Source: a virus (lineage: Duplodnaviria; Caudoviricetes). From it: a stretch of 51,052 bases of DNA. A program made the translations under genes and the position numbers. Positions within the stretch are counted from its first letter, which is position 1; each line of letters begins with the position of its first letter. Shown piece after piece: positions 19,660 through 51,052 of the stretch. A model generated the notes under the pieces. The model saw nothing but the letters and a program-made list of their open reading frames with translations, was not told where the DNA came from and did not search any database. The stretch covers positions 1-51,052 of the IMG/VR virus record IMGVR_UViG_3300024520_000105; one strand, 5' to 3'.

Positions 19660-19691
19660 CCGTGACAACAAAATGCAACAAAGGAGCAGCA

Positions 19692-20081: not shown

Positions 20082-20514
20082 CCCCCGCAATGACTCCCTG
20101 CTGCTATGGTAGCCCGGAGGATTGCCGACCAGAACGCAACGCCAGCAATGAGTTAACCATGACAACAAAATGCAACAAAGGAGCAGCAATGACACACTAT
20201 GAAGAACTAGCCAAACACCTGACCGAGCGCAGCGAAGAGATTTGCGCTGATAACGAATGCACAGAGGATGAACATAACTGCGACTCCTACGCCTACATGC
20301 AGGTAACGAGTCGGGGTTGCATTGACGGAAAGGAACGAATTGACGCAATGCTCTTGACGGTATGTTGCTCTGATTACTTTCAGGGAAGCGCCAAAGAGTA
20401 TATCGCTCTGCCGTTGCCTTTCACAGGTGATGCTAAGGCGTTGAAGGCAGCAGTTGAGGAGGAATGGCTTTCATTGGCTTAGCCCCCGCAATGACTCCCT
20501 GCTGCTATGGTAGC
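20076..20514 (+). repeat. Two identical 38 bp gene trailers (20076-20113, 20477-20514) that include the TAG stop
   Basis: gcttagcccccgcaatgactccctgctgctatggtagc; copy 2 extends into a hairpin. Confidence 0.9.
20189..20482 (+). CDS. Early hypothetical protein
   Basis: Between leader 4 and trailer 2. Confidence 0.7.
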   Translation: MTHYEELAKHLTERSEEICADNECTEDEHNCDSYAYMQVTSRGCIDGKERIDAMLLTVCCSDYFQGSAKEYIALPLPFTGDAKALKAAVEEEWLSLA

Positions 20515-20563
20515 AGGGGGCTGTTCTGAGGACTAACATGATAACGATACGGGGGGCGGAACG

Positions 20564-20716
20564 ATGAAAACACGCTTTGAAATGATAAAAGACAGGGATA
20601 CGGGCGAATGGAAGGTGGGGGAATTGCAGCCTAGCGGTCTATATAAGGTCGTATCTCGACACAAAGCCCACGATGATGCAAGGGCATGGATGAAAAGCCA
20701 CAGGGCCAACAAATAA
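20564..20716 (+). CDS. 50 aa hypothetical protein
   Basis: MKTRFEMIKDRDTGEWKV... Confidence 0.5.
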   Translation: MKTRFEMIKDRDTGEWKVGELQPSGLYKVVSRHKAHDDARAWMKSHRANK

Positions 20717-20726
20717 AGGAGCACCG

Positions 20727-20999
20727 ATGCGAGATACCACTATTAAATGCGATGCTTGCGGCAAGGAGCATGACTATTTGGGACTGCTAGACTTGAAGTG
20801 TACGGCAAGGACGGCTGGCCCTTTGGGGTTTGAGGAGTTTGAAATAAAGGGGATTGACGTTTGTGGCCTTGACTGCTTGCTGGCCTACATAGAGAAGAGG
20901 CGCGACCCGATAATGGTGAAAGATTGCCAGCATCCAAGAGAACATATACCGCCATTCGGCCCGATACCTTATGTTGAACGCACAAGGGAGAAAGCATAA
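20727..20999 (+). CDS. Zn-finger hypothetical protein
   Basis: CDAC...CGLDC; AAGGAG RBS. Confidence 0.65.
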   Translation: MRDTTIKCDACGKEHDYLGLLDLKCTARTAGPLGFEEFEIKGIDVCGLDCLLAYIEKRRDPIMVKDCQHPREHIPPFGPIPYVERTREKA

Positions 21000-21187
21000 T
21001 GCCAGAATACCTAACCAAAGGCAGCACAGTGACAAACGGCCATAGAGCCTATACGGTGGCAAGGGTGGCAAGGTCTAAAGAGTACCTTGGGGAGAAATTG
21101 TACCACTTCCACGGTATACAGGGCATAGTGTTCGGGCCATGGACGATAGAGGATATATATAACGCTGGCTATGAGCTGGCTGTTTAG
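20999..21187 (+). CDS. Hypothetical protein
   Basis: TAATG coupling. Confidence 0.6.
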   Translation: MPEYLTKGSTVTNGHRAYTVARVARSKEYLGEKLYHFHGIQGIVFGPWTIEDIYNAGYELAV

Positions 21188-21198
21188 GGGGCGGGACT

Positions 21199-21408
21199 TT
21201 GAAAATAGACATACAGGCAATCAAAGAGATACGGGCTGAGACTAAATGCAGTCTGCGGGAAGCTCTGACGGCATGGACAATCTGTCGCGGGGAAGCAACT
21301 GTAGCGGGCATGGCGGCTGAGAAGGAAACAGCAATAGCACTAATAGAATCGGGCAAGCTGGAGGACGTTTTCAGCTTTGTGGACGATTGTGCCAAGGAGA
21401 GAAGCTAA
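21199..21408 (+). CDS. Small protein with L7/L12- or EF-Ts-N-like helical motif
   Basis: IQAIKEIRAETKCSLREA. Confidence 0.5.
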   Translation: MKIDIQAIKEIRAETKCSLREALTAWTICRGEATVAGMAAEKETAIALIESGKLEDVFSFVDDCAKERS

Positions 21409-21759
21409 TGCACAACCTGGTAATAAGAGCAACGCTGGTAATGTTGGGGCTATGCCTGTTTGGGGCTATGTCTGCCTTGTGGTGTTTGGGATACATGGCG
21501 GCTATGGGGTTAATTGATTAAGGGGGCGGGACTTTGAGAATGCACAAAAACCTAGCAAAGACGCTTAAACTAGCCCTACGCCTACGCCTTATGGAATTGG
21601 CTAAGCAGGGGGTGAAGGTGACGATTCGGGGGGCGATGCTTTGAAAATGGCGGGCGATACAACCACATGGACCCAAAAGCTACTAGCCTTTCTATTGGGC
21701 TTTATTGTTATGGCTATATGCTATTGGGTGGGGGGAATGTGATTATGGAGGGCGATGGG

Positions 21760-29361: not shown

Positions 29362-30024
29362 GTGAAAGCATATTATCAGGATAGCTATTGTACGATATAT
29401 CACGGGGATTGTAGGGAAGTGTTGCCAGAGGTGGGTGACGTGGATTTAGTGTTGACCGACCCACCTTATGGGGTGGGCAAGCTTGTGGGCGGGATTTCCA
29501 AGGCTCGCAACAAGAACCATTATGCGTCACACGACGATACAGAAGAGTTTGTTGAAACCGTGGTGGTGCCCGTTATTATCACATGCATTGAAAAGGTGCA
29601 GAGGGTTGTTTTGACGCCAGGTTCACGGTGCATGTGGCTATACCCCCGCCCCTACTGCACAGGCGTATTCTATTATCCTGCCGGAGCGGGCATGTCGCGG
29701 TGGGGTTTTAACTGCTGGCAGCCAATCCTTTTCTATGGCAAAGACCCCTATGGTGGCACCTTGGGAAAACACAACGCTAGACGCAGCACTGAGGCGTCGG
29801 ACAAATCTATTGACCACCCGTGCCCCAAGCCCATTGGCGACTGGAAGTGGTTGCTGGACAGGGCCAGCAAGGAAGGCGAAACCATACTGGACCCGTTCAT
29901 GGGCAGCGGAACCACCCTCAGAGCCGCCAAGGACCTACAACGCCACGCTATAGGCATAGAGCTAGAGGAGAAGTACTGCGAAATAGCTGCCAAGCGTCTA
30001 GCGCAGGAGGTGTTGGCCCTATGA
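29362..30024 (+). CDS. DNA methyltransferase (N6-A/N4-C, beta class)
   Basis: DPPY; HPCPKP; DPFMGSGTT. Confidence 0.92.
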   Translation: MKAYYQDSYCTIYHGDCREVLPEVGDVDLVLTDPPYGVGKLVGGISKARNKNHYASHDDTEEFVETVVVPVIITCIEKVQRVVLTPGSRCMWLYPRPYCTGVFYYPAGAGMSRWGFNCWQPILFYGKDPYGGTLGKHNARRSTEASDKSIDHPCPKPIGDWKWLLDRASKEGETILDPFMGSGTTLRAAKDLQRHAIGIELEEKYCEIAAKRLAQEVLAL

Positions 30025-32378: not shown

Positions 32379-32810
32379 ATGCCTAGACGCAGAAAGAAAG
32401 ACAAACGCCCCTTAGCCGAAAGAAAGGCTGACCCGACCAGCAATTACTGGGACGACAGAGCGATGACGCTTTGGGGCGAGATAGTGCGAACTAAAGGCAC
32501 ATGCGAGAAATGTGGGCGAGTTGGCAGAGTTGAGGCACACCACCTGATAACACGGGCAGTCAAGTCTCTATGTCACAAGATAGAAAATTCTATCGCACTC
32601 TGCTTTCACTGCCATAGGGTTGAGCCAGGCTCGGCCCACGAAGACCCCGTGGTGTTCACTCAATGGCTAAACAACGTCAAGCCAGACCAATACCAGTGGG
32701 TTATGGAGAACAAACACAAGATTCGTAAGCCCGATTTCAAGCAGGCTTATGAGGACTTAGTAGAAATCAAACGACTTTCTGAGCAAGCCGCACCTAATCA
32801 GGGCAGCTAG
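32379..32810 (+). CDS. NinG-like HNH recombination nuclease
   Basis: CEKC...EAHH...NSIALCFHCH. Confidence 0.75.
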   Translation: MPRRRKKDKRPLAERKADPTSNYWDDRAMTLWGEIVRTKGTCEKCGRVGRVEAHHLITRAVKSLCHKIENSIALCFHCHRVEPGSAHEDPVVFTQWLNNVKPDQYQWVMENKHKIRKPDFKQAYEDLVEIKRLSEQAAPNQGS

Positions 32811-33362: not shown

Positions 33363-33745
33363 CATGCCTAGAGTGTAAGTGGTTTGTGGTAGGTGCGACC
33401 TTTGGTGCTGGCCCTGTGAACTATTGTAACAGATACCCGCACTACTTCCATAGGCGAGACGAGGACCCTGCTTGTGGCGAGTTCAAGCCAGCCAAGGCCG
33501 CCCCAACCAAACGCTTCGTCCCGCCCACCACAATAGAGGTAAAGGAATACGCTGAGTCTATAGGCTATAGGCTAGACGCAGAGGCGTTCTGTAGCCACTA
33601 TGATAGCAATGGCTGGAAGGTGGGCAAGAATAAGATGAAGGATTGGCGGGCGGCTGTTAGGACATGGAAGCGCAATGCTACCCCTGACGAGCTAGTAGGC
33701 AATGATGGCTTTGATTTGAGGGAACTTAGGAAGGAGGGGGCGTGA
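33359..33745 (+). CDS. Replication initiator C-terminal-like (helicase loader) protein with N-terminal Cys motif
   Basis: KRFVPPT..EV...YDSNGWKVGKNKMKDWRAAVRTW. Confidence 0.7.
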   Translation: MTCLECKWFVVGATFGAGPVNYCNRYPHYFHRRDEDPACGEFKPAKAAPTKRFVPPTTIEVKEYAESIGYRLDAEAFCSHYDSNGWKVGKNKMKDWRAAVRTWKRNATPDELVGNDGFDLRELRKEGA

Positions 33746-34395
33746 GCAAGCCATACTACCAAGACGATTACTGTACTATATATCACGGGGACTGTAGGGA
33801 GGTTCTGCCTACACTGGACAAGGTGGACCTAGTGTTGACGGACCCGCCTTATGGGATATTCAAAAACGTAGGCGGTTCTGGCGTTATGTTTGGGCAACCA
33901 ACCATATACTCAGACGACGATAGCGCGGCAGAATGGGATAAGAGGCCAAACAAAGCAACGCTACTTTTGGTTAGGGACAAGGGCGTTCAGTATGTCATCT
34001 GGGGCGGCAACTACATGGCCGACGCGCTGGGTGCGTGTAAGGGCATATTGATATGGGACAAAAAAACGGGGAACAATAGCTATGCAGACGGTGAGTGTGC
34101 TTGGTCTAATGTGGCAGGAACAATGCGTATTCTACATCATCAATGGTGTGGCGCGTTTAAAGACAGTGAGCGCGGACATAGGGCTGTTCACCCCACACAG
34201 AAACCAATAGCGGTTATGGCTTGGTGTATTACGCTAGCCGACAATCCCGACACCATCCTAGACCCCTTCATGGGTTCAGGCACGACCTTAAGGGCGGCAA
34301 AGGACCTACAGCGTAAAGCCATTGGCATAGAGTGCGAAGAGAAGTATTGTGAGATTGCGGCCAAGCGATTGGCCCAAGAAGTATTGCCCTTATGA
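33742..34395 (+). CDS. DNA methyltransferase (N6-A/N4-C, beta class), paralog of 29362..30024
   Basis: DPPY; HPTQKP; DPFMGSGTT. Confidence 0.92.
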   Translation: MSKPYYQDDYCTIYHGDCREVLPTLDKVDLVLTDPPYGIFKNVGGSGVMFGQPTIYSDDDSAAEWDKRPNKATLLLVRDKGVQYVIWGGNYMADALGACKGILIWDKKTGNNSYADGECAWSNVAGTMRILHHQWCGAFKDSERGHRAVHPTQKPIAVMAWCITLADNPDTILDPFMGSGTTLRAAKDLQRKAIGIECEEKYCEIAAKRLAQEVLPL

Positions 34396-36443: not shown

Positions 36444-36596
36444 ATGGAAGCTTATCTGCTATACACGGTAGCGGCCTTGCAGTGGGGGTATGCTGTATTC
36501 TCTTATTTGGCGGGCAATCCATTCAAGGGGATACTCATGTTTCTCTATGGCGTAACGAACATAATCATAGCAATAATGCCCGAAGGAGCAAAATGA
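36444..36596 (+). CDS. 50 aa two-TM membrane protein
   Basis: Hydrophobic; GAGG RBS. Confidence 0.55.
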   Translation: MEAYLLYTVAALQWGYAVFSYLAGNPFKGILMFLYGVTNIIIAIMPEGAK

Positions 36597-37279
36597 AACC
36601 AGCCAAGCTAAAGTATCGAATCGCCCCAGAAGAAGTAAGCTCAGCCACATTCGACCTACAGGAATACAATGTCAGCGTAGTGTCTAGAGAGATATACCTG
36701 CATGGCTATAGGGACCTAGAGGTTGAGGAAGAACCTGGCATGGAGTATCGCATGGCCACCAAGTTCATAAAGAACCTGAACCTGCTAAACAACCAAGGCA
36801 GAGAGCCTATACTGGTCCACCAGCATACAGTAGGTGGCAACTGGAATGACGGTATGGCTATCTATGACGCTATCGTAGCATCCATATCGCCCGTAGTAAT
36901 ATTGGCCTATGCCCATGCAAGGTCTATGTCTAGCATTACGTTTCAGGGGGCGAGCTTAAGGGTAATGATGCCCAACGCAGACTTTATGGTGCATCAGGGT
37001 ACTGTATATGTAGAGGATACGGTGTTGGGCGCACAGACGCATATGGCCACCTGTAGAGAGAACGACGAGACTATGTTGGATATATACTCGTCTAAGTGTA
37101 AGGGCAGCCAGAAGTTCCACAACACCAGCAAGGGCGAGATTTGTAAGTACATTAGGCGTAAGATGGAGGAGAAACAGGAGTGGTATCTGACGGCCCAAGA
37201 GGCGGTGAAGTATGGCTTTGCCGATGGCGTATTGGGCGATAAGGGGTTGAAGAACATAGATGCATTGAGGAGAGCATAA
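36593..37279 (+). CDS. clpP: ClpP-like serine protease
   Basis: TVGGNW..GMAIYDAI, ARSMS (Ser), FMVHQG (His), YLTAQEAVKYGFAD. Confidence 0.85.
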   Translation: MKPAKLKYRIAPEEVSSATFDLQEYNVSVVSREIYLHGYRDLEVEEEPGMEYRMATKFIKNLNLLNNQGREPILVHQHTVGGNWNDGMAIYDAIVASISPVVILAYAHARSMSSITFQGASLRVMMPNADFMVHQGTVYVEDTVLGAQTHMATCRENDETMLDIYSSKCKGSQKFHNTSKGEICKYIRRKMEEKQEWYLTAQEAVKYGFADGVLGDKGLKNIDALRRA

Positions 37280-39288: not shown

Positions 39289-39513
39289 ATGCCAACAACA
39301 AGCACAAAGACACTGCCCAAAGCCATGCAAAACCTGATAAACGAGCTGCCCCAGTCACGCCAAGACAAGTGGGTAGGTGAGCCTGCCGAGTTCCTGCGTG
39401 AATGTGGTAAGCAAAAGAAGTCTGCTACGAGTGTCCACAAGATATTCGTTAAGCACTACTTCCCTGCCAACGCATCAACCATAGCAAGGAAGATGAAGGA
39501 GCTATCGGCCTAA
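39289..39513 (+). CDS. Small HTH-like protein; last gene of the plus arm
   Basis: GGAGG RBS; NASTIARKM. Confidence 0.55.
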   Translation: MPTTSTKTLPKAMQNLINELPQSRQDKWVGEPAEFLRECGKQKKSATSVHKIFVKHYFPANASTIARKMKELSA

Positions 39514-39986
39514 ACCACCACATCTGGGGCGTGTCCAGCCTTCCATGGTCCGCCCCCACATAGACGCACTAGCCTATATATCAGACCAACCTTAATCCGC
39601 CCACCACCCTCAACCTTAATCATCCTACGCAGACATAGCTTATCTACGTCCTTCCTACTCATATCATGGAACACATAGGTATGCCCATGTGGCCCCTTCT
39701 TATACAGCCCATGGTGATGATAGCCACTATCATGGAAGATATAGCTTAGCAGGAACTCGTCTTTAGGCAGGAACAGTTGCAGACTAGCAGGTGTAGAACC
39801 CATGTCTGTTTCGGCTAAGTGTTGGTCTGGGCGATACCTTGTCCCATCAGGCATCTCAAAGGTCAATGGCGCATTCTTCTTTAGGCGGAACTCATATATG
39901 GCTTTAGGGAAGATACCTAGACGCTTGACGTTCTTCACCTTGTCCAAGGCGTACCCCCTAGGATTGATGAATGCGCCCAACATCAC
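39510..39986 (-). CDS. DUF1353-like protein
   Basis: ETDMGSTP...IFHDSGY...SRKDVD...IYRLVRLCG. Confidence 0.75.
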   Translation of the reverse strand: MMLGAFINPRGYALDKVKNVKRLGIFPKAIYEFRLKKNAPLTFEMPDGTRYRPDQHLAETDMGSTPASLQLFLPKDEFLLSYIFHDSGYHHHGLYKKGPHGHTYVFHDMSRKDVDKLCLRRMIKVEGGGRIKVGLIYRLVRLCGGGPWKAGHAPDVVV

Positions 39987-40381
39987 TCTTCCACCTCTGC
40001 CACATCCATTGTATGGCTTACACCGACAGTCCTAAGCTTGGCCATCTCATATCTAAGGAACACAAAGCCCCCCACCACGCCTAAAAGGATAAGGGCTAAT
40101 ACCACTATCTTTACAGCGTCCATACCTCTAGCACTGATTACGGGCTTACCTGTTATGGGGTTGTTGATGACTAGGCCATTGACTGTGGGTTGTGGGGCGG
40201 GGGTTTCCAGTACATCTAGGCGTTGCTCAACCTCTGTCCTGACAGCACAGCCGTTAGCCTTTAGCTCGTTTAGGTCCACGCTCAGCCCATCGACCTTGGC
40301 GTGAATCACCTGACGCTCATCCTTGGCACTCTCGGCATATGCCAATAGCTTGCCTATATCCTTGTCTGTCCCGTTGGTCAT
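39983..40381 (-). CDS. Coiled-coil plus C-terminal TM protein (holin/lysis-region candidate)
   Basis: IVVLALILLGVVGGFVFL. Confidence 0.6.
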   Translation of the reverse strand: MTNGTDKDIGKLLAYAESAKDERQVIHAKVDGLSVDLNELKANGCAVRTEVEQRLDVLETPAPQPTVNGLVINNPITGKPVISARGMDAVKIVVLALILLGVVGGFVFLRYEMAKLRTVGVSHTMDVAEVEE

Positions 40382-40405
40382 CCCTTTACTCCCTTACCTT
40401 CCCCT

Positions 40406-40477
40406 TTACCACATAAACCATAACAATAGGGCTGTAGCCAATGCCATCATTAACCCTACGATTATAGACCATTTCAT
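40406..40477 (-). CDS. 23 aa hydrophobic peptide
   Basis: MKWSIIVGLMMALATALLLWFMW; TAATG coupling. Confidence 0.4.
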   Translation of the reverse strand: MKWSIIVGLMMALATALLLWFMW

Positions 40478-40893
40478 TATTCATCCGATGGGTTCAAGTT
40501 CTTTGTATATGCCCAACCCTTGCTCGCCAGCGTATTAGTCACATCAAAAGTGCCCGCAAACATTACGCCAGGGTTATCGTCTGTCCATGCCTTGAACTTA
40601 GCTATCTCTGCTGCGTCTAGGCTGCTCTTGGCCTGCTGGAAGGATACGACATATATACGACCTGTAACATTGGTATCGCTTATCTTATGGGTGGGCATCC
40701 AGCCTTGGTCTACCTTGTTACGGTTGGGGCGAGTGTCGTCTTTATCCCAGATAGCCAGTTGGATCTTTTGAAGCTTGTTGCTGTTGGCCGCATAGAAGGA
40801 GTCTCTGCAACCCAGAACGAACAGCTTGATACTGTGGTCGCCAGCCATGCAGGGCAGCGCAATCAAAGCGAAGAGTAATAGTATCTTCTTCAT
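40477..40893 (-). CDS. Signal-peptide protein downstream of the LamG gene
   Basis: MKKILLLFALIALPCMA-G. Confidence 0.75.
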   Translation of the reverse strand: MKKILLLFALIALPCMAGDHSIKLFVLGCRDSFYAANSNKLQKIQLAIWDKDDTRPNRNKVDQGWMPTHKISDTNVTGRIYVVSFQQAKSSLDAAEIAKFKAWTDDNPGVMFAGTFDVTNTLASKGWAYTKNLNPSDE

Positions 40894-41684
40894 TTCCGCC
40901 CCATCTGCCACAACTGAAATATTTGGTTAGAGGTGTATGCCGTATCGCAGTCCACGATGATGTCGTCCATATTGCCGCTGAAGTGTGCGCCGGGAGAGTC
41001 CTGATTATATGCTCCGATCATAATGTCAGAGCTGCTATTGAAGAGAGGGTTCTGTACCCCATCGTCCCTGTCAAGCCCCTGCTGTATGCCATTACGGTAT
41101 ATCTTAATCACCTGTGCGGACGATGCGTCCCACGTGATGCCTATGTGTTGCCATCCTGTAGCAATAACCCCTTGAGCAGTCCATGAGTTGCTGTTCGCGC
41201 TCCCGCTATTGGAGAAGTTGAACCTCATCCTGCCGCTGTCCCATTGGTAACAGGTCCACGAGTTCTGACTGCCACCGCCGCCGCGCTTATTGATATACGC
41301 TTCCTCCGTGTTGGCATTGTCAGGGTCCACCCACAGCGCAACCGTGAGCTTGTTGCCAGCGTCGAGGCCGCTGTTGTCAGAAATGAATCCAGTATCGCCT
41401 CCATCAAGGCTGATATACTTATTCGTCCCTTCGTCAACAGTCGTCCACGCCCCGGCCCCGTCTGATTTGTTGACGTTGTTCGTATCGCTGCCACTGTCAA
41501 CCTCTGCGTCGTTGAGCGTCTGATTAAAACTGAGCATTACAACGGTCCCTGTGTACGCATTGGAAGGCACCTTCAAATAGTCAAAGGTGTTTGTGAATCC
41601 CGGCACCCTCCCGAACTTCCAATCACCACCGCAGGCTGTCGAGGCCACAAGCAGCAATAGAACTATGAGTTTATTTGAAGTCAA
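40890..41684 (-). CDS. LamG/concanavalin-like domain protein with signal peptide (possible receptor binding)
   Basis: LTVALWV, WQHIGITWD, KIYRNG, IMIGA, FSGNMDD; KLIVLLLLVASTACG. Confidence 0.85.
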   Translation of the reverse strand: MTSNKLIVLLLLVASTACGGDWKFGRVPGFTNTFDYLKVPSNAYTGTVVMLSFNQTLNDAEVDSGSDTNNVNKSDGAGAWTTVDEGTNKYISLDGGDTGFISDNSGLDAGNKLTVALWVDPDNANTEEAYINKRGGGGSQNSWTCYQWDSGRMRFNFSNSGSANSNSWTAQGVIATGWQHIGITWDASSAQVIKIYRNGIQQGLDRDDGVQNPLFNSSSDIMIGAYNQDSPGAHFSGNMDDIIVDCDTAYTSNQIFQLWQMGRK

Positions 41685-44553
41685 AGGTGTTCGTCCTTAT
41701 TGTTGGGGCAGAGTTGGTGTGGTAGTATACGACCCATGCCCCACCAGAGAAGTCCTGCTCTGCCCAGTCACTAGGACCGTTGGAGTAGAAGATGGAGCCT
41801 GAACCAACGTCAAATGCATCGGCCTTGACTGTGCCTGCCACGTCAACCACTTGAGTAGGAGAGGTTACACTAAAGCCGACATTCCCATTCTCTAACAGAC
41901 GTACTGACTCAGCGTTCCCGGGCCTTAACACTATGGGCTCGGTAGAACTTATCTGACACTCAGTCGAAGATAAGCCGTAGTCTACCGTCTGTCCGCCACC
42001 GGGACGAGAAAGCCTTATCTTATCGTTGACCCCGTCTGACGCGACATGGAGAGGCTGAGTACTGGCATCTATTCCGATTCCCACGTTGCCCGTCAATGTC
42101 GTTGTCAATTTATTCGTAGCAGGTAGGTCCACAACCAATCCGCCGTCCACGTTAAGGTCGTTGTCTATATCCACATTTCCCGTATCGGCTATAGTCACCT
42201 TCTGTGTGCCGCCAAGATAGAACTCTATATCTCCGCCATTCCTGCCCGCCTCAAGCCAGAGGTCGCCATTCGAACTATTGGTGCCATAGGCCAATACACT
42301 AGCACTAGGGCCATTCTCTGCCCCACCCCATATAGCCACAACCCCATCCTCATCATTGCGGTGTATAGCCGATGAAGCACCTAGAGTAAGGTCAGCGTTT
42401 ATAGCCTGTTCAGCGGTCCATACGTTGACCTCATTCGTGTTGGGGATTTGCAGCATGACGTTAGTGCCGTTGACGGTCAGCACACCATTCACGGTTTGAT
42501 TAGCGTTCCACACTAAAGCTTGGTTGGTGGTAACGAATGTCCCGTCTTGGTTGGGCACAGTCCATGTCCTCGTAGTGGCCGTACTCACCTCGCTAACCTC
42601 AAGAGCCAACAGCTTGGTAGAGTCGCCATCGTCAAACACCCTGAAAGAGCTATCGCTGAATACGCTTGCTGCAGCACTAGCCGAGCTACCCCCACCCGAA
42701 GTGAATAGAGGGAACCCACGCCTATCGGTAATAATGGTAGTCCATGTCCCGCTACCCGCAGTCTGCCTTCTCAGGGTAAGCGTAGCCAGCCATACAGCCG
42801 TACTCTCTAAGTCCTTATCTACGCTGAGTACGCTAAAGGCACTAGAGTCAGCCAATGCCGCAGCTTCGGTGCTGTACTGGTCGGTAGACAGGTTAAGCCC
42901 TATCTTCATGCCTATATTGTTGGTAGAGCCTGAAGGGGCGAATCCTATGACCTGTACGTTGAACCTAGCGTTGTTTGAGTCCAACACAGCGACACCATTA
43001 GCATCAACGCTTATCTGGTTTAGGTTCGTGATGGCCTTGATGCCGCTGGGATCGTTAAGGATATGATACTCAGCAGAAGCGTCCACATTCGTGACAGCAG
43101 TCACGTTCTGTAAGTGAAGCTGGTACGCGGTCCCTGCATCCATTGTCACAAAAACGTCATCCTCGGCAGCCCCGTTCACATTCGTCCTGACATTAGCGGC
43201 CATACCCGTCTGCCACTTGGCACCCAGAGTCCTAATCCTCTCGCCTATATGACTGAGCATGCCCCTACCGTTAGGGCCGCCCACCATCTCGGTCCATCTC
43301 TGAAGCAGCGTTGGCCCTTCATCATCCTGCACATCGGCAGCATCCAATAGCCCCACCTTAAACAGTATGGCCACCTCACCCGTAGGCTTATCACCATCTG
43401 CTACGAGTATGGCGTTAGATGTAGCATAGACCCAACTAATCTGAAGATTATTGGTAGCCCCAGCAGTCATCAATAGGTTCGATGGCATGGCATAGCTCAC
43501 TGGACGCCCGCCCCAGAAATACACCAATGGCGCACCATCAGTAGAATTAACCGCACCCGTAATAGCATTGCCATCTGTACTGAAGTTTATCGTTTGCCTA
43601 TTGGACGATAGCCCATCGGCTATGCAATGGGTGAATGCGCCAGCGGTTAGGTTGGATATGGATATAACATCAGCTTGATTTGACACTATCGCCAGATCCC
43701 ACTGATTGCTTCTATCGGTCAGCGTGCTGCCCGTAATGTTCCATGTATTGCTTCTGTCAACTATCGTAGAACTTGCCACATCCCATGCACTCGACCTAGC
43801 AACGATAGTGTCGCTGGCCACATTCCATGACTGCGTATCACTTGCCGCTAAGTCCAATGAAATAGTGTTCACACCCGCAACCGCCCCACCATCTCTGCCA
43901 AGCAGCCCAGACACAAATATGCTATTGGTGAATAGGCTCGCCCCACTAAGAGACGCAGCATAGTTCGTCGCAAACGTCACGGTCATTAGCCCCGAAGACA
44001 GTTTGACATTATTGCTCGTACTCTCATCAAAGGCTACGCTACTGGTGAACGGCCAGTTACTCATGCTAGTCAATGTATGCAGGGGTGGCCCTATAAGAGC
44101 ATTAGCCAATGGGTTAGTCCATGCGCTTTGATCCTGATTCTCAAACAATGAATGGTGTATCTGCACTTTGCCCTTAGCGATACTACGACCTGGTACATTG
44201 GTGTACTGGCTCTCATAGCCCAGCAGTTCAGCGAAGTATACGTTATTAGGGGGCAAGCTTGTCCTGACTATAGTAGCCAAGTAATTGGTCTGCCCACTAA
44301 CTACACCATTGGTCACATCCAAGAACACTGGGCCAGTCTGCTTTCTAGTAAGCCTGAATATCATGCCCGTATAGGCATAGTCACTGTTCAGGTTTAGCAC
44401 TTGGTCGTCGTAACCAGACCAATTCCATGTGAAGTTGGTATAGTCAAAGCTTAGGTTGGCATTGACAAAGTTCTCGGTATTGGTGTTGCGTGGGAATGCC
44501 ATGGCCACTGACGGTATGAGCAGGGCTAGGGCTATTAGTTTTAGGTGTTTCAT
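41671..44553 (-). CDS. ~960 aa tail-fibre-like protein with signal peptide
   Basis: Start ATG 44553 (TAATG): MKHLKLIALALLIPSVAMA-F; TTRTWTVPNQDGT and GNVGIG fibre motifs; 14-aa W-spaced repeats. Confidence 0.8.
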   Translation of the reverse strand: MKHLKLIALALLIPSVAMAFPRNTNTENFVNANLSFDYTNFTWNWSGYDDQVLNLNSDYAYTGMIFRLTRKQTGPVFLDVTNGVVSGQTNYLATIVRTSLPPNNVYFAELLGYESQYTNVPGRSIAKGKVQIHHSLFENQDQSAWTNPLANALIGPPLHTLTSMSNWPFTSSVAFDESTSNNVKLSSGLMTVTFATNYAASLSGASLFTNSIFVSGLLGRDGGAVAGVNTISLDLAASDTQSWNVASDTIVARSSAWDVASSTIVDRSNTWNITGSTLTDRSNQWDLAIVSNQADVISISNLTAGAFTHCIADGLSSNRQTINFSTDGNAITGAVNSTDGAPLVYFWGGRPVSYAMPSNLLMTAGATNNLQISWVYATSNAILVADGDKPTGEVAILFKVGLLDAADVQDDEGPTLLQRWTEMVGGPNGRGMLSHIGERIRTLGAKWQTGMAANVRTNVNGAAEDDVFVTMDAGTAYQLHLQNVTAVTNVDASAEYHILNDPSGIKAITNLNQISVDANGVAVLDSNNARFNVQVIGFAPSGSTNNIGMKIGLNLSTDQYSTEAAALADSSAFSVLSVDKDLESTAVWLATLTLRRQTAGSGTWTTIITDRRGFPLFTSGGGSSASAAASVFSDSSFRVFDDGDSTKLLALEVSEVSTATTRTWTVPNQDGTFVTTNQALVWNANQTVNGVLTVNGTNVMLQIPNTNEVNVWTAEQAINADLTLGASSAIHRNDEDGVVAIWGGAENGPSASVLAYGTNSSNGDLWLEAGRNGGDIEFYLGGTQKVTIADTGNVDIDNDLNVDGGLVVDLPATNKLTTTLTGNVGIGIDASTQPLHVASDGVNDKIRLSRPGGGQTVDYGLSSTECQISSTEPIVLRPGNAESVRLLENGNVGFSVTSPTQVVDVAGTVKADAFDVGSGSIFYSNGPSDWAEQDFSGGAWVVYYHTNSAPTIRTNTFDFK

Positions 44554-47500
44554 TATCGTCTCCGTGTACGTCTTCTGCTTTTCTTGCGGGGTGTATGTTC
44601 TGAAATTGATAGGCCAAAGAATGCCCCCGCTCCAGCAGCAGTTGTCTTTACTGGGTCGTGAGTCCCTACCCATAAGTCGTGAACCTCCTGCCAGACCAAA
44701 GGGGCAAACGCCCTGATAAGCGTTTCAACTTTACCCTGCTCTTGGCCTATTGCGTTTTTGCCCTCTACCAAAGCCACAAGCCCAGTCACCGTTGGGTTCA
44801 GTTTGTAAAAGACGAATCTTGACATTAAATCTCTAAGGTTGGTGTTGACTTCTCTTCCGCCGAATGCTTGCTTTCCCTTTAGAGCCGCAACAGCCAAAAT
44901 GCGGGCAGGCTGCTGAAGGCCAGCGAACAGGTCTATTCTGGTATTGCCGACTATGATTTTTCCCCAGTCGCTACTCTCTGGGTCTGTCCCTACATCTGCA
45001 CCTGCAAGTTGAGCAAGACCAATCGCGGACGCCGTAACAGTGGAAAACGCGAAGAAGTCTTTGGCAATCTCGTTTCTAACTCTAGGGTTCTTCCAATTCT
45101 TAAAAAAGGCAAGTGGAGTCTGCACCCTAGAAGCAGTGAAACGCGGAGCAAAGAATGCAGTGGCCAAGTCCTCTGCCGCCCTATTAAAACTGCCCAAATC
45201 GCCCCTGCCACTGGCCTTGTTTACATAATCAGCCCACGCCCTAAGTTCAACGTCTGTAGCGTTGGGATAGGTTTTTGCGAACTGGTCAAACGATGCCGCC
45301 CTCATCATGTTCAGCATAGTAGTCATATTGCGGTTTGACCCCTTAACAAGTTTACCAAACCCTAGTATCTTCTCTGCCAAGCGCGACGCAAACTGTTCCT
45401 CTCCAGCCCGTATAGGTCCGTCTAGCGTAGCCAAGAACAGGCCAGATTTGTCACGCTTCACTTGGTTGGGGTGGTTGCGAAGGTTGAAGTCTATGGCGTC
45501 AGCCTTGTGCTGCGAGAAGAACGCACCAAAAGCCTTGCCGAACGACTTGGCGAATGTTCCTGGCCGTCTTGCTCCCAATATCGCAGCCTGTCTCAAGGCT
45601 CCAGACATATCTGCCGTTGCAAGAGTTGCCCTTGAGAGCGAACCGACCTCTCTGGCTATTTGAGTCCTTGTCAGCGGTTTCTTGCTGTCTATCAATGCCT
45701 TTACATCACGCTTCTTGGCCGCCAACTTAACAGCAGCATTCTCAAGTTCTTCTAGGCGTACCCGCTTATCTCTCTGCGGGGTAGCGGCAAAATCATCCTC
45801 TGCAATCTGGCGGTCCAGGTCTGCTATCTTGTCATTGGTACGCATCAAAGCCCTCAAGTCTGCCAAATCCTGCTTAGCCTTGGTTATGTCAGCCCTGTCT
45901 TCTGGTCGGGCCTTCTTGACATCCCTTTGTCCTGTAGCAAGTTGGTCCTGAACTTGCTGTATTTTCAACTGAACCTCTTTAAGCTTCATATCGTCATTGA
46001 TGGTGCGAAACGCACTCGTCTTTAGCTTCTTCAAGAGCTTTCGTAATTCTTTCACCCTAGCAGAATCAGACGCCTTTAGGGCTGGTTGGTCAAATATGCC
46101 CTTCTGTGCATCGTCTATCTTGGCCTCTAGCCTAGCCTGAATCTTCAAGTCCGACTCAACACTCCTAGCCTCTTTGCGCTGCCGAGACTTCTCTGTGCGC
46201 CTTTTGCCAGCCAATGAATCCCATACCTGCCTGTCCGTTAAGTCCGGCACATCTAGCCTCACACGCTCGGCCACAGCCTCTAACGTGGTAGCACCCTGCT
46301 TGATATGGTTTATCGCCAGCTTCCCGATAATCCTAGCGGCTTCAGGGGCCAGCCCTGTAACGTCATTGACCCTATGGCCCATGGTAGCAAGTTGCTTCTT
46401 AAGGTCAGCCTGCTCTTCCGCTAGACCAGCCTGCTTTCTCCTGCGCCTTGTCTGGCCAACTTCCTCTTTGAGTACACGGCCCGCATTCTTCTTTGACCTA
46501 CCAGCATCCATCTTGTCAGCAGCTGCCGTCAATTTAGCAACTTGGTCTTCTAGCGTCCGTATCTGGTCTGTCAGATTCTTGGCCTCTACGTTCTCTTTGA
46601 CGGTCAGCTTATCACCCTTAGCAACTTTGAGTGCCTGTTTTAATCCAGCCAGAGTGTATACCTCTCTGTTGATTCTTAGCCTTTGGAGGTTGAGTGCACC
46701 ACCAGCCTTTGACCCACGGAACCTTGCAGCCTCAGTGATAACGTCAAGAATCTCGTCTTTAACGTCTAGTTGGGTCTGCAATTTTGCGGCCTCTGCTGGT
46801 TTGCCAGCATCTATCAAATCGGCAGCTTTTTTCACTATTGCCGCCCGCTCGTCTTCCAGTTGAGCTGTCCTGAGAATCATAGCCACGAACTCATCGTCTG
46901 TTATGTTGCCCTTGTTCTTTATCGCGCCTCTAGCAACCTCCTCCGCCTGCTGGTCTAGCCCCTTTGCCTTGACTCTGTTCAATCTGTCAGCAAACGTGCG
47001 CTGGGCTTCAGGCTCTATCTGGTCTAGCTCGGACGCATCCCTGATTCTGGCAATCTCTTCCTTCGTCAGTGCAGTTGTGTTGTCTGGCCTAGTTGCCGCA
47101 GACTCTTGCTGCTGCTTAACGGTCACATCATCATCTATGTTGCTTGCAGTCTTAAGGGCCGCCTCTTGGGCCGCTATGCGCTCTGCTGATGCTGGTATCG
47201 GGCGGGGGGCTTCAGGGGCGGCTGATGGTGAAGGCGACGGTTGCTTGAAACTGTCTATTGTCTCTAAAAACTCTTTGGCCCACGGAGCGGGAAGCTTAGA
47301 CTCTACAAACGCTCTTGACGCTTGGGCGGCCTCAACCTCAGCAGGTTGTTCAAAATAGGGGATGCGCCTTGATTCCCTTGTTTGTCCACGCCCTTCTAAT
47401 ATCTGCACAACGTGCTGAAGCTCATGGGCTATGCCCGCAGATGCCTCGTCAATATTCCTAGCCGTGAACCTTATTGTGTGCTGGCCTATGGATGATTTGT

Positions 47501-49154
47501 CGGTTGCATCTACCACCGTACTAACCTGCCCATGAACGGGGTCATAAACACCGTCTGGGTCTATGCGTACATCCACCCTCACATTCTCAGCCTCTGGAAA
47601 GTCTGCAAACAGCTTCTCGTCACCTACAACATTGGAGAGCTTTGTATCTATGTTTGTATGCGTAACATCTTTCCCGCTTGGAACCCTAAGCGTTCTCTCA
47701 AGATGTGCTGGAATATCTATACGGGAGGCATATGTAGGAACACCGCGATTTGTTTCACCACTTTGAAGTGCAAAAACAGGCTCCCCCTTTGATATGGAAG
47801 ACCTGTCGGCAACAGAGATGACGCTGGGGGCTTCCCTTGGCGTTGGCCTTATGGGTGTCTCCCTCTGCTCAGGGGCCGCCACAGGTTCTTCGACCACTGG
47901 CCTAGATTCACCTGTCTCGTCTATCTCTATGCGCTGTGGGGCTTCTGGTACAGGTGCAGGAGCTTCCTCTGTCTTGAACCCCGTCTTCTCGCCCTCGGCC
48001 AAGTCCTTCTTGAACTTAGACAGAACGGCTTTCTTGGTCTTGCGGGCAAACATATCAAATTCGCCCTGACTGCGCTGTAGCTTCAGTCTACCACTCTTGG
48101 TAGCGTTGTCCTCTAGACCAAATACTATGCTCATAGCCAACTGCGGCATCTCTTCTTTGATGAACCAATCCATGAATGACTGGTCCTGTAGCCTATCCCT
48201 AAGCCCTAAATCGGTAATCATGTCAAAGGCCAAGTCTGTACCCACCTGAGCCAAGAAGTTGCTTACACCTGGCCCAACGGTCTGCTCTGGGAATATGCCT
48301 ATAAGCGATGCTGCTACAGACTGCCCAAAGTTGGCTGCTGCAGTCTTAGGGTCTACGCCAGCGTCTAAAGAAGCTAGACTCCTAACGCCAGAGGTTATGC
48401 CCGCTGTGCCAAGCCTTGTGGCGAACAACTGACCTAAGCTGGAAAGCTCCTGCACCTTCTTAAGCCCACCAAAAGCACCCGCAACAGCCCTACCCGAAAG
48501 GACTGCGCCAATAAGGTTCAATGTGGAGTTGGCAATCTGCTCACCTGTGGACTGGGCGTTGAGTTCGGCACCTGCAGCCTTGCCAAGCCTATCAAGCACC
48601 AAGTCACTCAATCCTAGCGTAAGCCCAGACTCTAGGGACTTTAGCCCCCTGAACACAGGTTCTGCTGCACCAAGGAACTGTTCTGCCCCTGCACCCTCGC
48701 CCTCTATGCTGGCAGCAGACTCTAAGCCTGCCAACCTCTGAAACTCGTTAAATCTTTTGTTGGCCGTCTGCTGGGCGGCAACATCACCAGACGCCTGTGC
48801 TGCCCTTAGCTCCTCCTTAGACCGCTCCAGCCCTGCGACAATGGCATCATCTGTAGTCTTGGACTCCTGTATGAGTTCGCTGGCAGGGCCTTGGGCTGGC
48901 GTAGCATCGGCTACACTCTGGCGCAGCATGGTGTCACCCTCTGGCTGGCCGTCTGGGGCGGTTAGTGCGGTTCTCGTCTGGATTGGCTGAGACAGGAAGT
49001 CCAAGGACTCGTCCTGTGCTGCCACGGGCGGGGCTTTCGCTGGACCGTCTAGCAAGAAATCAAGAGACTCGTCTTGTATGGAAGGAGTGCTGGCAGGTTC
49101 TGCCTGTCCTACATCATCTAACAAGAAGTCGAGACTATTGTTATTGCTTGCCAC
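44553..49154 (-). CDS. 1533 aa internal virion/ejection (large polyvalent) protein with a HExxH metallopeptidase-like insert
   Basis: SLDFLL repeats, long coiled coils, AHELQHVVQILEG, DPESSDWGKI. Confidence 0.75.
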   Translation of the reverse strand: MASNNNSLDFLLDDVGQAEPASTPSIQDESLDFLLDGPAKAPPVAAQDESLDFLSQPIQTRTALTAPDGQPEGDTMLRQSVADATPAQGPASELIQESKTTDDAIVAGLERSKEELRAAQASGDVAAQQTANKRFNEFQRLAGLESAASIEGEGAGAEQFLGAAEPVFRGLKSLESGLTLGLSDLVLDRLGKAAGAELNAQSTGEQIANSTLNLIGAVLSGRAVAGAFGGLKKVQELSSLGQLFATRLGTAGITSGVRSLASLDAGVDPKTAAANFGQSVAASLIGIFPEQTVGPGVSNFLAQVGTDLAFDMITDLGLRDRLQDQSFMDWFIKEEMPQLAMSIVFGLEDNATKSGRLKLQRSQGEFDMFARKTKKAVLSKFKKDLAEGEKTGFKTEEAPAPVPEAPQRIEIDETGESRPVVEEPVAAPEQRETPIRPTPREAPSVISVADRSSISKGEPVFALQSGETNRGVPTYASRIDIPAHLERTLRVPSGKDVTHTNIDTKLSNVVGDEKLFADFPEAENVRVDVRIDPDGVYDPVHGQVSTVVDATDKSSIGQHTIRFTARNIDEASAGIAHELQHVVQILEGRGQTRESRRIPYFEQPAEVEAAQASRAFVESKLPAPWAKEFLETIDSFKQPSPSPSAAPEAPRPIPASAERIAAQEAALKTASNIDDDVTVKQQQESAATRPDNTTALTKEEIARIRDASELDQIEPEAQRTFADRLNRVKAKGLDQQAEEVARGAIKNKGNITDDEFVAMILRTAQLEDERAAIVKKAADLIDAGKPAEAAKLQTQLDVKDEILDVITEAARFRGSKAGGALNLQRLRINREVYTLAGLKQALKVAKGDKLTVKENVEAKNLTDQIRTLEDQVAKLTAAADKMDAGRSKKNAGRVLKEEVGQTRRRRKQAGLAEEQADLKKQLATMGHRVNDVTGLAPEAARIIGKLAINHIKQGATTLEAVAERVRLDVPDLTDRQVWDSLAGKRRTEKSRQRKEARSVESDLKIQARLEAKIDDAQKGIFDQPALKASDSARVKELRKLLKKLKTSAFRTINDDMKLKEVQLKIQQVQDQLATGQRDVKKARPEDRADITKAKQDLADLRALMRTNDKIADLDRQIAEDDFAATPQRDKRVRLEELENAAVKLAAKKRDVKALIDSKKPLTRTQIAREVGSLSRATLATADMSGALRQAAILGARRPGTFAKSFGKAFGAFFSQHKADAIDFNLRNHPNQVKRDKSGLFLATLDGPIRAGEEQFASRLAEKILGFGKLVKGSNRNMTTMLNMMRAASFDQFAKTYPNATDVELRAWADYVNKASGRGDLGSFNRAAEDLATAFFAPRFTASRVQTPLAFFKNWKNPRVRNEIAKDFFAFSTVTASAIGLAQLAGADVGTDPESSDWGKIIVGNTRIDLFAGLQQPARILAVAALKGKQAFGGREVNTNLRDLMSRFVFYKLNPTVTGLVALVEGKNAIGQEQGKVETLIRAFAPLVWQEVHDLWVGTHDPVKTTAAGAGAFFGLSISEHTPRKKSRRRTRRR

Positions 49155-50622
49155 GATTGTTCTCCTTCACCAGTAGCTTGGCCGCCTTATAATTGTCCAC
49201 CGCGAGCTTTGCTGCAGCACTTCCCTTTTGCTCGTTCACCGTCTTGAATATCTTGATTACGATTTCCTCATCATTCAAGCCTTCAAAGAGAGGGCTGTTT
49301 TTCACCCTGTCAACCCTGTCAACCGCCTTTGCAAACGCAACGTCATCTGAGTCTATGCGGCCATCTCCGTTGGCATCCCCCACGCTCTCTGGGGATGTAG
49401 TTGGGCGTTGAGCGTCTGGCACAGGAACAGTCTCAAGTTCTGGCACCTCTGGCGTACCAGTAGGTCTTGTAATGTCTGTGCGGCCCACAACAACCTTGCC
49501 TTCCTCATCGAATATATCTTCAGAGATTGTCTTCTTGCCCACCTTGGTCTTTTCAAACTCAACCAGAGCATTGAACCTAGCCATATTCTCGTCACGCAGG
49601 GCTTCTCTCTTCTCCTTCTCCAACTGTGCCTGTAATCTAGCAGGGTCACGCGCAAACTCGCCAGCAGCCACTTGTTCTGCTACACGCTTTTGTTCAAGCT
49701 GTACCTTGGCGGCATCAAGCCCAAACTTCAGTTTATCTGCTGCACTAAGAGTGCCAAACTGAAACGCTTTCTGGATTCTATTTGCCCTATCTATTCGCTC
49801 CCTAGACTCTGCGGCAACCCTAGCTGACTCGCCTTCAAGCCGAAGCTCTGACTCAAGGTCGGTAGCAGTCTTCTTCTCGGCAATAATAGCGTTCCTATTA
49901 GCAGCCAACCTATCCTCTAACTGCTTAATCTCGCCACCAATCTGCGCCTTAGCACTCTCTTTGGCCTCTAGCGTCTTAGCACCAGAGAACCTGCGATTGA
50001 ACGCAAGGGTTGAGCCAAGCTGCTCTCTAAGTTCTGCAAGCTGCGCCTCTAACGGCCCCTGCTCTTGGCGTTGCTTCTGCTCTGCTGGGGTCAACGCCTT
50101 GCGCTGGCCAGCACTCTCAGCCCGCTGTACGGTGCCAGTAGCTTCGTCAAATATCTCGCCTTCAGCCACACGTCTATCTTCTATCGGTACAGACGCACCC
50201 AACTCTAGTGGGCCGCCAGCAAACTTGCTGCGTTCTGTAGCTAGGGCCTGCTCTAGCGGGTTCTTCTGTATCTGTGAAGGCAATACGAAGTCCACGCCAG
50301 CCTCATCGGCCAAGCGTGCAGCATCCGAAGTCTCGCCAACTACGGGGCCAGTAATGCGGCCCGGCAGCGTTGCTCGCCTAATCTCTTCGTCCTGCTGTGC
50401 GGCTAATTCGGGGAACTCTTCCTTGTTGATTGGCTCACTCTCTATCTCCAGCCTGTCTGCATCCGTAATGCCTCTTGTTGCAAACGCTGCCCCTACCTGC
50501 CTGCCTTGTGCTTCGGCTAGTGCCACCTTCTGTGCTGCTGAAACGCCAGGAAGCGTGGTTATCGCCCCGCCCCCTAAGTCGAACAGCTCTTTCCTTGTTT
50601 TTCTTCTTCTTCCGTTAGCCAT
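49141..50622 (-). CDS. Putative ejection/internal virion protein
   Basis: 493 aa, Ala/Glu/Arg-rich helical; upstream of the large ejection protein. Confidence 0.65.
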   Translation of the reverse strand: MANGRRRKTRKELFDLGGGAITTLPGVSAAQKVALAEAQGRQVGAAFATRGITDADRLEIESEPINKEEFPELAAQQDEEIRRATLPGRITGPVVGETSDAARLADEAGVDFVLPSQIQKNPLEQALATERSKFAGGPLELGASVPIEDRRVAEGEIFDEATGTVQRAESAGQRKALTPAEQKQRQEQGPLEAQLAELREQLGSTLAFNRRFSGAKTLEAKESAKAQIGGEIKQLEDRLAANRNAIIAEKKTATDLESELRLEGESARVAAESRERIDRANRIQKAFQFGTLSAADKLKFGLDAAKVQLEQKRVAEQVAAGEFARDPARLQAQLEKEKREALRDENMARFNALVEFEKTKVGKKTISEDIFDEEGKVVVGRTDITRPTGTPEVPELETVPVPDAQRPTTSPESVGDANGDGRIDSDDVAFAKAVDRVDRVKNSPLFEGLNDEEIVIKIFKTVNEQKGSAAAKLAVDNYKAAKLLVKENNRGKQ

Positions 50623-50631
50623 GACTATCTC

Positions 50632-51052
50632 CTATGGAGTTGTGTTATCAAATGAGAACTCCCAATCATACGTCCAGACTGTCTCGTTTATCTCTATTCG
50701 TTTCGTCTCATTGGACGCTATCGGGAATTGTGGAACAGGGTTGTTTGTGCGGCCATACTCTACTGAGCCAAACCGCTGTGGGGTGTTGGTCACGGCCAAT
50801 GTTTCAACACGATACCAGTTAGTGGGTATAGTCCATGGGTAGCCGTCATAGCCAGTAGGTCTATTGCTATAGGCGTTAATGGTTAGGGACGCAGGGTCGC
50901 TTAAGAACCATATGCTTGCCTCTGAAGGTATGTGGGTGGCGATTTGGCCTGCCCATGCCTGTCCACGCTCTCTGTCGCCCTCTACGGTGAAACTGAAGGG
51001 GGCTGTTCGTTCAACTCGGCCCTTAACCTCGTATGGGCGTAAGGATGCCCCA
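50632..51052 (-). CDS. 3' part of the junction-spanning protein (...YPWTIPTNWYRVETLAVTNTPQ...WEFSFDNTTP*)
   Basis: Open frame ending TAG at 50634-50632, directly upstream of the RBS/ATG of 49141..50622. Confidence 0.85.
   Translation of the reverse strand, partial: GASLRPYEVKGRVERTAPFSFTVEGDRERGQAWAGQIATHIPSEASIWFLSDPASLTINAYSNRPTGYDGYPWTIPTNWYRVETLAVTNTPQRFGSVEYGRTNNPVPQFPIASNETKRIEINETVWTYDWEFSFDNTTP
50835..51052. repeat. Terminal direct repeat/assembly overlap, right copy; unit genome about 50834 bp
   Basis: Matches 1-218. Confidence 0.95.

Follow-up and report, generated by a model that had tools for sequence, protein, structure and literature searches.

Why should a single dipeptide be crowded into just those proteins of a tailed phage that carry predicted export signals? 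The window analysed here, the complete 51,052-base virus record IMGVR_UViG_3300024520_000105 (Duplodnaviria; Caudoviricetes), raises this question at positions 41671-44553, which are exactly the gene of a 960-amino-acid (aa) tail-fibre-like protein, its ATG at 44553 overlapping the stop of the 1533-aa gene upstream. An original prediction made from hand counts held that Thr-Asn (TN, in one-letter code) and Ser-Asn (SN) pairs are enriched only in the exported proteins of this phage, where a host periplasmic system would glycosylate them and so give a glycan-coated virion. The TN part of that proposal, corrected for composition, specific for the order of the two residues and linked to export signals, is real; the SN part is not. 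A host modification motif is the tentatively preferred explanation of the TN excess.

Thr-Asn pairs and predicted export signals

Residues were shuffled 1000 times within each protein, which keeps its composition, and the observed pairs were compared with the number expected from the shuffles. Exported open reading frames (ORFs) were set beforehand as those with a signal peptide or signal-anchor; ten ORFs (3234 aa) show such predicted features (an N-terminal Lys or Arg with a hydrophobic core and a site of AxA type, or else a signal-anchor), and the other 73 ORFs comprise 12,505 aa. The ten exported ORFs contain 57 TN pairs against 21.2 expected (z 8.8), and the 73 others 31 against 26.8 (z 0.9). 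The corresponding rates, 1.76 per 100 aa (57/3234) and 0.25 per 100 aa (31/12505), agree with the earlier estimates of about 2 and 0.3. When the five TN-rich proteins are pooled (2450 aa), 51 pairs are found against 18.5 expected (z 8.2), so that TN ranks first among all 400 dipeptides, followed by YH at z 5.3; 51 of the 173 Asn residues in these proteins stand directly after Thr. The remaining 78 ORFs have 37 TN against 30.0.

The excess is specific to this pair in this direction. The reverse pair NT (16 against 18.2) and NS (9 against 15.2) are not enriched in the five proteins, and both are at chance level in the exported ORFs as a whole. SN, the other half of the motif first proposed, is also at chance, with 17 against 15.2 in the five proteins and 24 against 18.8 (z 1.3) in the ten exported ORFs. 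TD (14 against 20.1) and TQ (10 against 10.4) show no excess in the ten ORFs. Known sequons are ruled out as an explanation, since all are at chance in the same ten ORFs: the Bacteroidota sequon D-[ST]-[ALVIMT] occurs 12 times against 15.5, the PglB sequon [DE]-x-N-x-[ST] once against 3.9, and N-x-[ST] 35 times against 39.1. A wider motif around TN was sought and only weak flanks were found: in the five proteins, charged residues are scarce next to the pair and the second position past the Asn tends to be hydrophobic. Around 469 sites in 25 TN-rich homologues, a set selected for its TN excess, the sequence approximates to [IV]-T-N-L-[PT]-A.

The hexamer ACNAAY occurs 51, 2 and 2 times in the three reading frames of the TN-rich genes. 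It is thus found almost only in frame, which rules out a DNA-level motif as the cause and places the excess at the protein level. The four Thr codons and the two Asn codons all occur in the pairs. ACC is favoured in front of Asn (30/51), an instance of a preference for NNC before AAY that runs across the genome and holds also for Gly, Ala, Pro and Arg; a codon-pair artefact is ruled out on this ground. Among the exported proteins, blastp detects no significant relationship or shared module (best E 0.01 over 67 aa). As a genome-wide habit in its own right, C-ending codons are favoured before Asn, for example GGC-AAY at 34/399 versus GGA-AAY at 3/114.

The fibre has a predicted Sec-type signal peptide at residues 1-19 (MKHLKLIALALLIPSVAMA, followed by F), an immunoglobulin (Ig)-like anchor domain at 20-146, with five TN pairs in its 127 residues, and a widespread fibre core domain at about 320-620. 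Its TN pairs are spread over most of its length, with 8 against 2.2 at residues 1-210, 0 against 0.7 at 211-309, 6 against 2.7 at 310-680 and 6 against 2.4 at 681-960; SN reaches 12 against 7.8 (p 0.07) and N-x-S/T 12 against 15.2. No Pfam or PHROG family matches the fibre. Its assignment as a tail fibre or receptor-binding protein follows from the Ig-like N-terminal domain, from homologues with Peptidase_S74-type neighbours (Atlas) and from the position of its gene after that of the 1533-aa ejection-type protein; its presence in the virion is predicted.

The proposed confinement to exported proteins holds better than the original prediction could know, because the 292-aa protein, although without a signal at its N-terminus, contains an internal one. 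Its predicted layout is a coiled-coil-like cytoplasmic N-terminus, then either a signal-anchor or a late signal peptide at about residues 55-76 (RIGILAVIAVIGLSVIAYGA, followed by E), and last a TN-rich C-terminal domain. The hydrophobic segment, with a small-x-small site after it, is conserved in an alignment with six homologues, and all seven TN pairs (7/7) lie behind the segment, at residues 123-275. A 35-residue repeat in this protein carries two TN pairs 7 residues apart.

The earlier hand counts were reproduced for the fibre, the 711-aa, 292-aa, portal and terL proteins and the capsid; the ejection-type protein has four pairs where three had been counted (Table 1). A 493-aa protein is at chance level (0 against 0.9). 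The junction protein, which runs off the start of the window, had been given as 373 aa with nine pairs. If the record ends join, it has six pairs and is read here as 345 aa with its start at the ATG at 967; a start at the ATG at 919 (329 aa) is more likely and would give it the predicted signal MLKRIISIVMATAMTSSAAS. Joining the ends is an assumption, since the record has no terminal repeat at its ends and is classed as linear. At least eight late-operon genes on the minus strand (927-5106, 40477-44553 and 1-967) encode proteins with a predicted signal peptide or signal-anchor.

Table 1. Genes of the window considered here, with TN pairs observed versus expected after within-protein shuffling
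Feature	Coordinates	Strand	TN observed vs expected	Shuffles or p	Remarks
Tail-fibre-like protein, 960 aa	41671-44553	minus	20 vs 8.2	0/1000 shuffles reach it	
711-aa exported protein (predicted)	1241-3376	minus	15 vs 4.7	0/1000	predicted signal VKRLALVLLLLATTALGA, followed by EY
292-aa protein	4228-5106	minus	7 vs 2.8	p 0.012	directly downstream of capsid gene
142-aa protein	3748-4176	minus	3 vs 0.7	p 0.018	predicted signal peptide
Junction protein, main part	1-967	minus	6 vs 2.0	p 0.003	ORF runs off window start
Junction protein, last 23 codons and stop	50982-51052	minus			if record ends join
LamG (Laminin_G_3) protein, 264 aa	40890-41684	minus	3 vs 1.9		PF13385, E 3.8e-17; excess not clear
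144-aa protein	40477-40911	minus	2 vs 0.6		predicted signal peptide
109-aa protein	927-1256	minus	1 vs 0.1		predicted signal peptide
Control: 1533-aa ejection-type protein	44553-49154	minus	4 vs 2.8		no export signal; chance level
Control: major capsid protein	5172-6125	minus	2 vs 1.7		chance level
Control: 734-aa protein	8033-10237	minus	2 vs 3.5		called portal in the original prediction; no family match for the name
Control: large terminase (terL)	12270-14135	minus	2 vs 2.5		phrog_5653 and tblastn to annotated terminases

Homologues and related viral loci

Predicted export and the TN excess go together in this genome, inside protein families and among related phages. A library of 1.84 billion proteins contains 2037 homologues of the fibre at E <= 0.001. 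The set analysed comprises 149 of these: 148 of the 150 listed matches among the 2037 (the other two being the query and P0003), together with P0003. By a hydropathy rule, 53 of them are signal-bearing and have TN at 1.76x expectation, versus 1.07x in the 96 others (Mann-Whitney p 4e-6, kinship ignored). Twenty homologues have the N-terminal domain in common with the fibre; in these, TN occurs 302 times against 111.4 and NT is at 0.73x. At least 16 of them begin with a fibre-type signal, and others are truncated. The core domain alone (residues 310-680) is at 1.39x in 39 signal-bearing homologues and at 0.86x in 89 signal-less ones. The fold as such does not require TN.

The family of the 711-aa protein repeats this pattern. 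All five close members have a signal-bearing start and all five are enriched (15/4.7, 8/2.3, 7/3.1, 9/3.0 and 8/2.5 observed/expected; pooled 47 against 15.6), whereas none of the four signal-less members is (1/2.8, 3/3.8, 6/4.2 and 2/2.8; pooled 12 against 13.6). Three of the signal-less members come from viral loci in which TN is enriched in the other exported ORFs.

In related viral and metagenome loci, every plus-strand ORF of at least 80 aa was counted. In five viral loci, 17 exported ORFs hold 134 TN against 47.2 (2.84x; 2.3-3.4x per locus) and 56 others hold 64 against 56.8 (1.1x). In eight metagenome loci, 14 exported ORFs hold 151 against 48.6 (3.1x) and 22 others 26 against 32.4 (0.8x); one locus (L017) was dropped as identical to L007, and L010 and L013 have no called exported ORF. 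The giant proteins syntenic to the ejection-type gene in relatives have 3 against 7.8 and 7 against 2.8.

Gene order around the capsid recurs as well. In three relatives (L003-L005), an anchored counterpart of the 292-aa protein follows the capsid gene and is itself followed by a small signal-bearing protein, as in the window; at the position of the 142-aa gene, these small proteins have TN at 2/0.6, 4/1.2 and 2/1.0. Upstream of the giant ejection-type gene in two related metagenome contigs, L014:565-2058 and L012:2301-3596 encode proteins with an N-terminal anchor or signal and TN at 14 against 3.3 and 10 against 2.4. A single-sequence scan of viral contigs yielded no close relative of the fibre, and alignment-based searches are needed for such relatives.

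Explanations for the excess

The preferred explanation, put forward tentatively and at a little under even odds, treats TN as a short recognition motif, selected only in those parts of the proteins of this phage that cross the host inner membrane and most likely the sequon of a host envelope enzyme that would modify it covalently. Either Thr or Asn could be the modified residue, and glycosylation is the obvious candidate. The main reason for preferring a sequon lies within the fibre family itself. D-S/T-A/I/L/V/M/T is the established O-glycosylation sequon of Bacteroidota; according to a review, it is glycosylated only in noncytoplasmic proteins, is enriched in them, and belongs to the sole motif-driven bacterial O-glycosylation so far known (PMC12871550). 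This motif is above chance in 5 of the 21 signal-bearing, TN-poor fibre homologues (pooled 68 against 28.7, 2.4x). These five core-domain homologues (P0151, P0129, P0117, P0063 and P0045), are signal-bearing and have no TN excess; the individual counts of the motif among the five are 16/5.4, 18/7.0, 13/6.1, 11/5.1 and 10/5.1. Five of the six highest scores for the motif among the 149 homologues come from signal-bearing proteins, and the 22 TN-rich signal-bearing homologues have it 75 times against 93 (0.81x). Judged from their sequences, the predicted exported members of one fibre family fall into groups, each with a short motif of its own at about 2.5-3x expectation, and one of these motifs is a proven sequon. 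By analogy with the Bacteroidota-sequon subgroup, a host sequon on exported fibres is a reasonable reading.

The turnover of sites points the same way. In the TN-rich fibre homologues, 133 TN pairs occupy 75 separate columns of the core. Of the 12 query pairs in the 711-aa family that can be aligned, 7 are kept by at most one of four close homologues, and each homologue still has 7-9 TN. Acceptor sites would be expected to behave in this way, keeping their density as individual positions change.

The TN pattern resembles several known systems in part. Like the Bacteroidota sequon (PMC12871550), TN is a short motif over-represented in the noncytoplasmic proteins of one lineage, here at about 2.7-3x in predicted exported ORFs versus about 1x in the rest. 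It differs in that the Bacteroidota system takes Ser and Thr alike, whereas Ser is no substitute for Thr in TN, and in that TN is known from sequence alone. PglB-type N-glycosylation and the N-X-S/T systems of archaea and eukaryotes (AglB/STT3 type) are likewise sequon-driven modifications of Asn in exported proteins, but their sequons are at or below chance here and the determinant in TN is the residue directly before the Asn (position -1). Glycosylated mycobacteriophage virions are a case of tailed phages whose structural proteins bear sugars; there, the phage supplies the glycosyltransferases and the proteins remain in the cytoplasm. The present case differs on both counts: the TN proteins carry predicted export signals, and family searches of the window proteins found no recognisable glycosyltransferase. 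Any modification would thus be the work of the host.

Several points weigh against a sequon. The lack of a recognisable glycosyltransferase in the phage genome is one. Signal peptides were called by a hydropathy scan and by eye, without a trained predictor. Small exported proteins (185 aa, 82 aa and the LamG protein) show little or no TN excess, their expected counts being below 2. The signal-less members of the 711-aa family are more distant (18-31% identity), which weakens the contrast within that family somewhat, and the homologue sets are phylogenetically non-independent: two L007 proteins recur in L016, and the fibres of L018 and L008 are alike. In the literature found, as far as titles and the beginnings of abstracts tell, no TN-type sequon or Thr-Asn modification motif is described. 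Some TN pairs of the fibre stay in place, those at residues 89, 509 and 544 being kept in 14/21, 12/19 and 9/13 close homologues. TN-TN spacings of 2-5 residues occur 5 times against about 43 expected, and spacings of 8-12 are favoured (74 against about 46). The strong conservation of the pair and its placement at strand ends and helix caps suit a structural role equally well.

That structural role is the main and a serious rival, and is judged somewhat less likely than the sequon. Thr would end a strand or cap a helix and Asn would start a turn, which would suit folding in the periplasm without cytoplasmic chaperones, and nothing would be attached. Beyond the kept columns and the spacing just described, this would account for the Asn of TN being about twice as conserved as other Asn (0.54 versus 0.26, 0.48 versus 0.26 and 0.50 versus 0.27), for the Thr of TN being more conserved than other Thr in the fibre family, for the presence of FPYxTNT, TNxTG and WTNP in the N-domain consensus itself, and for the two pairs 7 residues apart in the repeat of the 292-aa protein.

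The models bear on both readings: pairs in coil and outside any solenoid are counted in favour of a sequon, and pairs next to strands, on either side, or at the ends of helices in favour of a structural role. The AlphaFold2 model of the fibre (101-row alignment; mean predicted local distance difference test score, pLDDT, 64) is confident at residues 20-146 and 320-620 and below pLDDT 50 at 147-315 and 621-960. Eleven TN pairs lie in its confident parts, where seven are modelled in coil (three directly after a strand) and four at or in strands. The model of the 711-aa protein (9 rows, pLDDT 63) consists of alpha/beta modules, its TN pairs placed in coils and where strands or helices end, and has no fold match in the PDB at E <= 0.001. 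Buried Asn ladders of parallel beta-helices or beta-rolls, as in pectate-lyase-like tailspikes and YadA-like heads, had been named as a finding that would count against modification. Such ladders consist of regularly spaced Asn at the turns of fibrous, beta-rich proteins; the modelled pairs lie in varied places, and no repetitive solenoid is seen in the confident parts (fibre 20-146 and 320-620; 711-aa protein 25-295 and 480-620), the low-confidence part amounting to 54% of the fibre.

The folds that would have to share such a capping motif differ, comprising an Ig-like sandwich, a fibre core and alpha/beta modules in unrelated proteins. Customary structural stand-ins for TN are not enriched in the TN-rich homologues (SN 1.06x, TD 0.87x, TG 0.95x and TQ 0.68x, with TN at 2.24 per 100 aa), and at the query TN columns the TN-poor homologues have unrelated pairs (IT, DT, AT), with TD at residue 509 only. 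Bacteroidota-type signal-bearing homologues would also fold in a periplasm and have no TN excess, and signal-less members of the same families have none either. An Asp-to-Asn swap at a generic T-D turn was considered separately and is ruled out: the TN-poor homologues have TD at 1.00x, and its drop from 0.92 to 0.58 per 100 aa is far below the gain of TN from 0.62 to 2.24 per 100 aa.

A second rival keeps the recognition and drops the covalent bond: TN would be bound by a periplasmic chaperone or by a sorting or outer-membrane transit factor, or would form a surface pattern that aids binding to envelope glycans. The same export-linked, lineage-specific excess would be expected, and the weak flanks ([IV] before Thr; Leu, then Pro or Thr, then Ala after Asn; charges depleted beside the pair) are counted in its favour. 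Sorting signals, however, are usually single and terminal, whereas TN recurs about once per 45 residues along whole proteins, and family searches found no candidate partner encoded in the window. No such factor is known to us, and this explanation is judged improbable. Least credible, and largely refuted by the controls, is a functionless by-product, whether of composition, of a DNA motif, of a codon-pair bias or of common descent among fibre modules: the TN-rich proteins are indeed rich in Thr (10-13%) and Asn (4-8%) and over-use ACC before Asn, but shuffling within proteins keeps composition and still leaves z at 8-9, NT, made of the same residues, stays at 0.7-0.9x, the hexamer is confined to one frame, the NNC-AAY preference holds genome-wide for all amino acids, and the exported proteins are unrelated, with TN pairs conserved above background.

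If TN is a host sequon, a three-step route may be envisaged. The Sec system would export the fibre together with the 711-aa protein, the 292-aa protein with its membrane anchor and a number of small proteins; the exposed TN sites of these proteins would then be modified; and the exported parts would join the capsid and tail built in the cytoplasm once lysis breaches the inner membrane. The exported ORFs are poor in Cys, so disulfide formation is no obvious reason for export. In its fullest form, which is possible but held with more reserve than the sequon itself, the proposal is that TN serves an undescribed motif-driven general system of glycosylation, or of another covalent modification, in a non-Bacteroidota diderm envelope, with Kiritimatiellia or the wider Planctomycetes-Verrucomicrobia-Chlamydiae (PVC) group as candidate, and that tailed phages of that clade send their host-recognition gear through Sec for decoration by the host and attach it at lysis.

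The original prediction took the excess as a possible clue to a host among the Verrucomicrobiota or Kiritimatiellota; evidence on the host is slender. Scans of genome contigs with terL and with P0003 found no relative, only one weak repeat-level match in an archaeal metagenome-assembled genome; the fibre had no match in the phage collection, terL matched only remote terminases of many hosts, and the window has no tRNA. The Atlas offers a weak lead, a cluster of score 0.82 with Verrucomicrobiota members, and places the LamG protein in viral clusters. Titles and the beginnings of abstracts in the literature found describe no glycosylation in Verrucomicrobia, Akkermansia or Kiritimatiellota.

Genome setting and implications for virion assembly

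The minus strand of the window carries the late, structural block (1-18744 and 39510-51052) and the plus strand the early, replication block. Few genes match known families in Pfam and PHROG searches. The large terminase matches phrog_5653 (E 4.5e-5) and the capsid protein matches phrog_371 weakly (E 0.001); further matches are a LamG domain, a Cpn10-like domain, DnaB, two N6/N4 DNA methylases, a ClpP-type protease, YopX, a metallophosphatase and HNH endonucleases. The LamG protein has a lipoprotein-like N-terminus, its signal depending on a TTG start; an alternative gene call starts at residue 27.

Several other features of the genome stand out. Beside the terminase block, a 210-aa protein (11487-12119, minus) ends in a Cpn10/GroES-like domain (E 5e-5), and three of the four HNH/endonuclease VII-type nuclease genes of this 51-kb genome (14688-15149 and 16689-17799, minus; 32379-32810, plus) are clustered there. 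The ClpP-type protease gene (36482-37279, plus) lies in the plus-strand block, distant from the capsid gene. The two DNA methylase genes (29362-30024 and 33742-34395, plus) are paralogous and near-identical in their N-termini, which include YYQDSYCTIYHGDCREVLP.

The early region is rich in repeats. At 19132-20195 on the plus strand, a leader of about 42 nucleotides (TAACCATGACA...AACAAAGGAGCAGCAATG) occurs in four copies ahead of successive small early ORFs and takes in the ribosome-binding site and the start codon. Mechanically called ORFs there consequently open with look-alike peptides (...TKCNKGAAM), and the leader is probably a shared regulatory or translation-initiation element. Three copies of 35-mers containing GGGCGGGCG lie at 18706-19001, the divergent junction of the gene blocks of the two strands, and four GGGGGCGGGACTTTGAAAAT-like 29-mers at 20548-21653. 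A perfect direct repeat of 38 nucleotides (20076-20113 and 20477-20514, 401 nucleotides apart) flanks a 130-aa ORF at 20090-20482.

The modelled Ig-like sandwich of the fibre (residues 20-146) links it to known receptor-binding structures. Foldseek (E 1e-4 to 2e-3; template modelling score on target 0.48-0.59) matches it to phage baseplate and neck domains, among them the N-terminal domain of TP901-1 ORF48/BppU (3uh8), the 80alpha baseplate (6v8i) and the Bas63 connector (9mt4), and the fibre gene follows that of the ejection-type protein, as in these Ig-like-anchored systems. To our knowledge, none of the TP901-1, 80alpha and Bas63 proteins has a signal peptide. Among titles and the beginnings of abstracts in the literature found, no Sec-exported fibre of a tailed phage is described.

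Whatever the chemistry, a group of tailed phages has predicted Sec signals on its fibres and head-proximal proteins, and these exported parts appear to evolve under a constraint that is not felt by the cytoplasmic virion proteins. Such signals on phage parts challenge the view that tailed-phage particles are completed in the cytoplasm. If TN is a modification site, it would represent a second motif-driven protein modification code in bacteria, readable from sequence; an excess of TN in noncytoplasmic proteins across genomes would then indicate the host clade, and phylogenetic profiling the enzyme. The finding bears on host prediction from phage sequence, on the engineering of fibres and on their expression in a wrong host. 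If TN glycosylation outside Bacteroidota proves true, bacteria would have a second motif-driven glycosylation code and tailed phages a new route of assembly.

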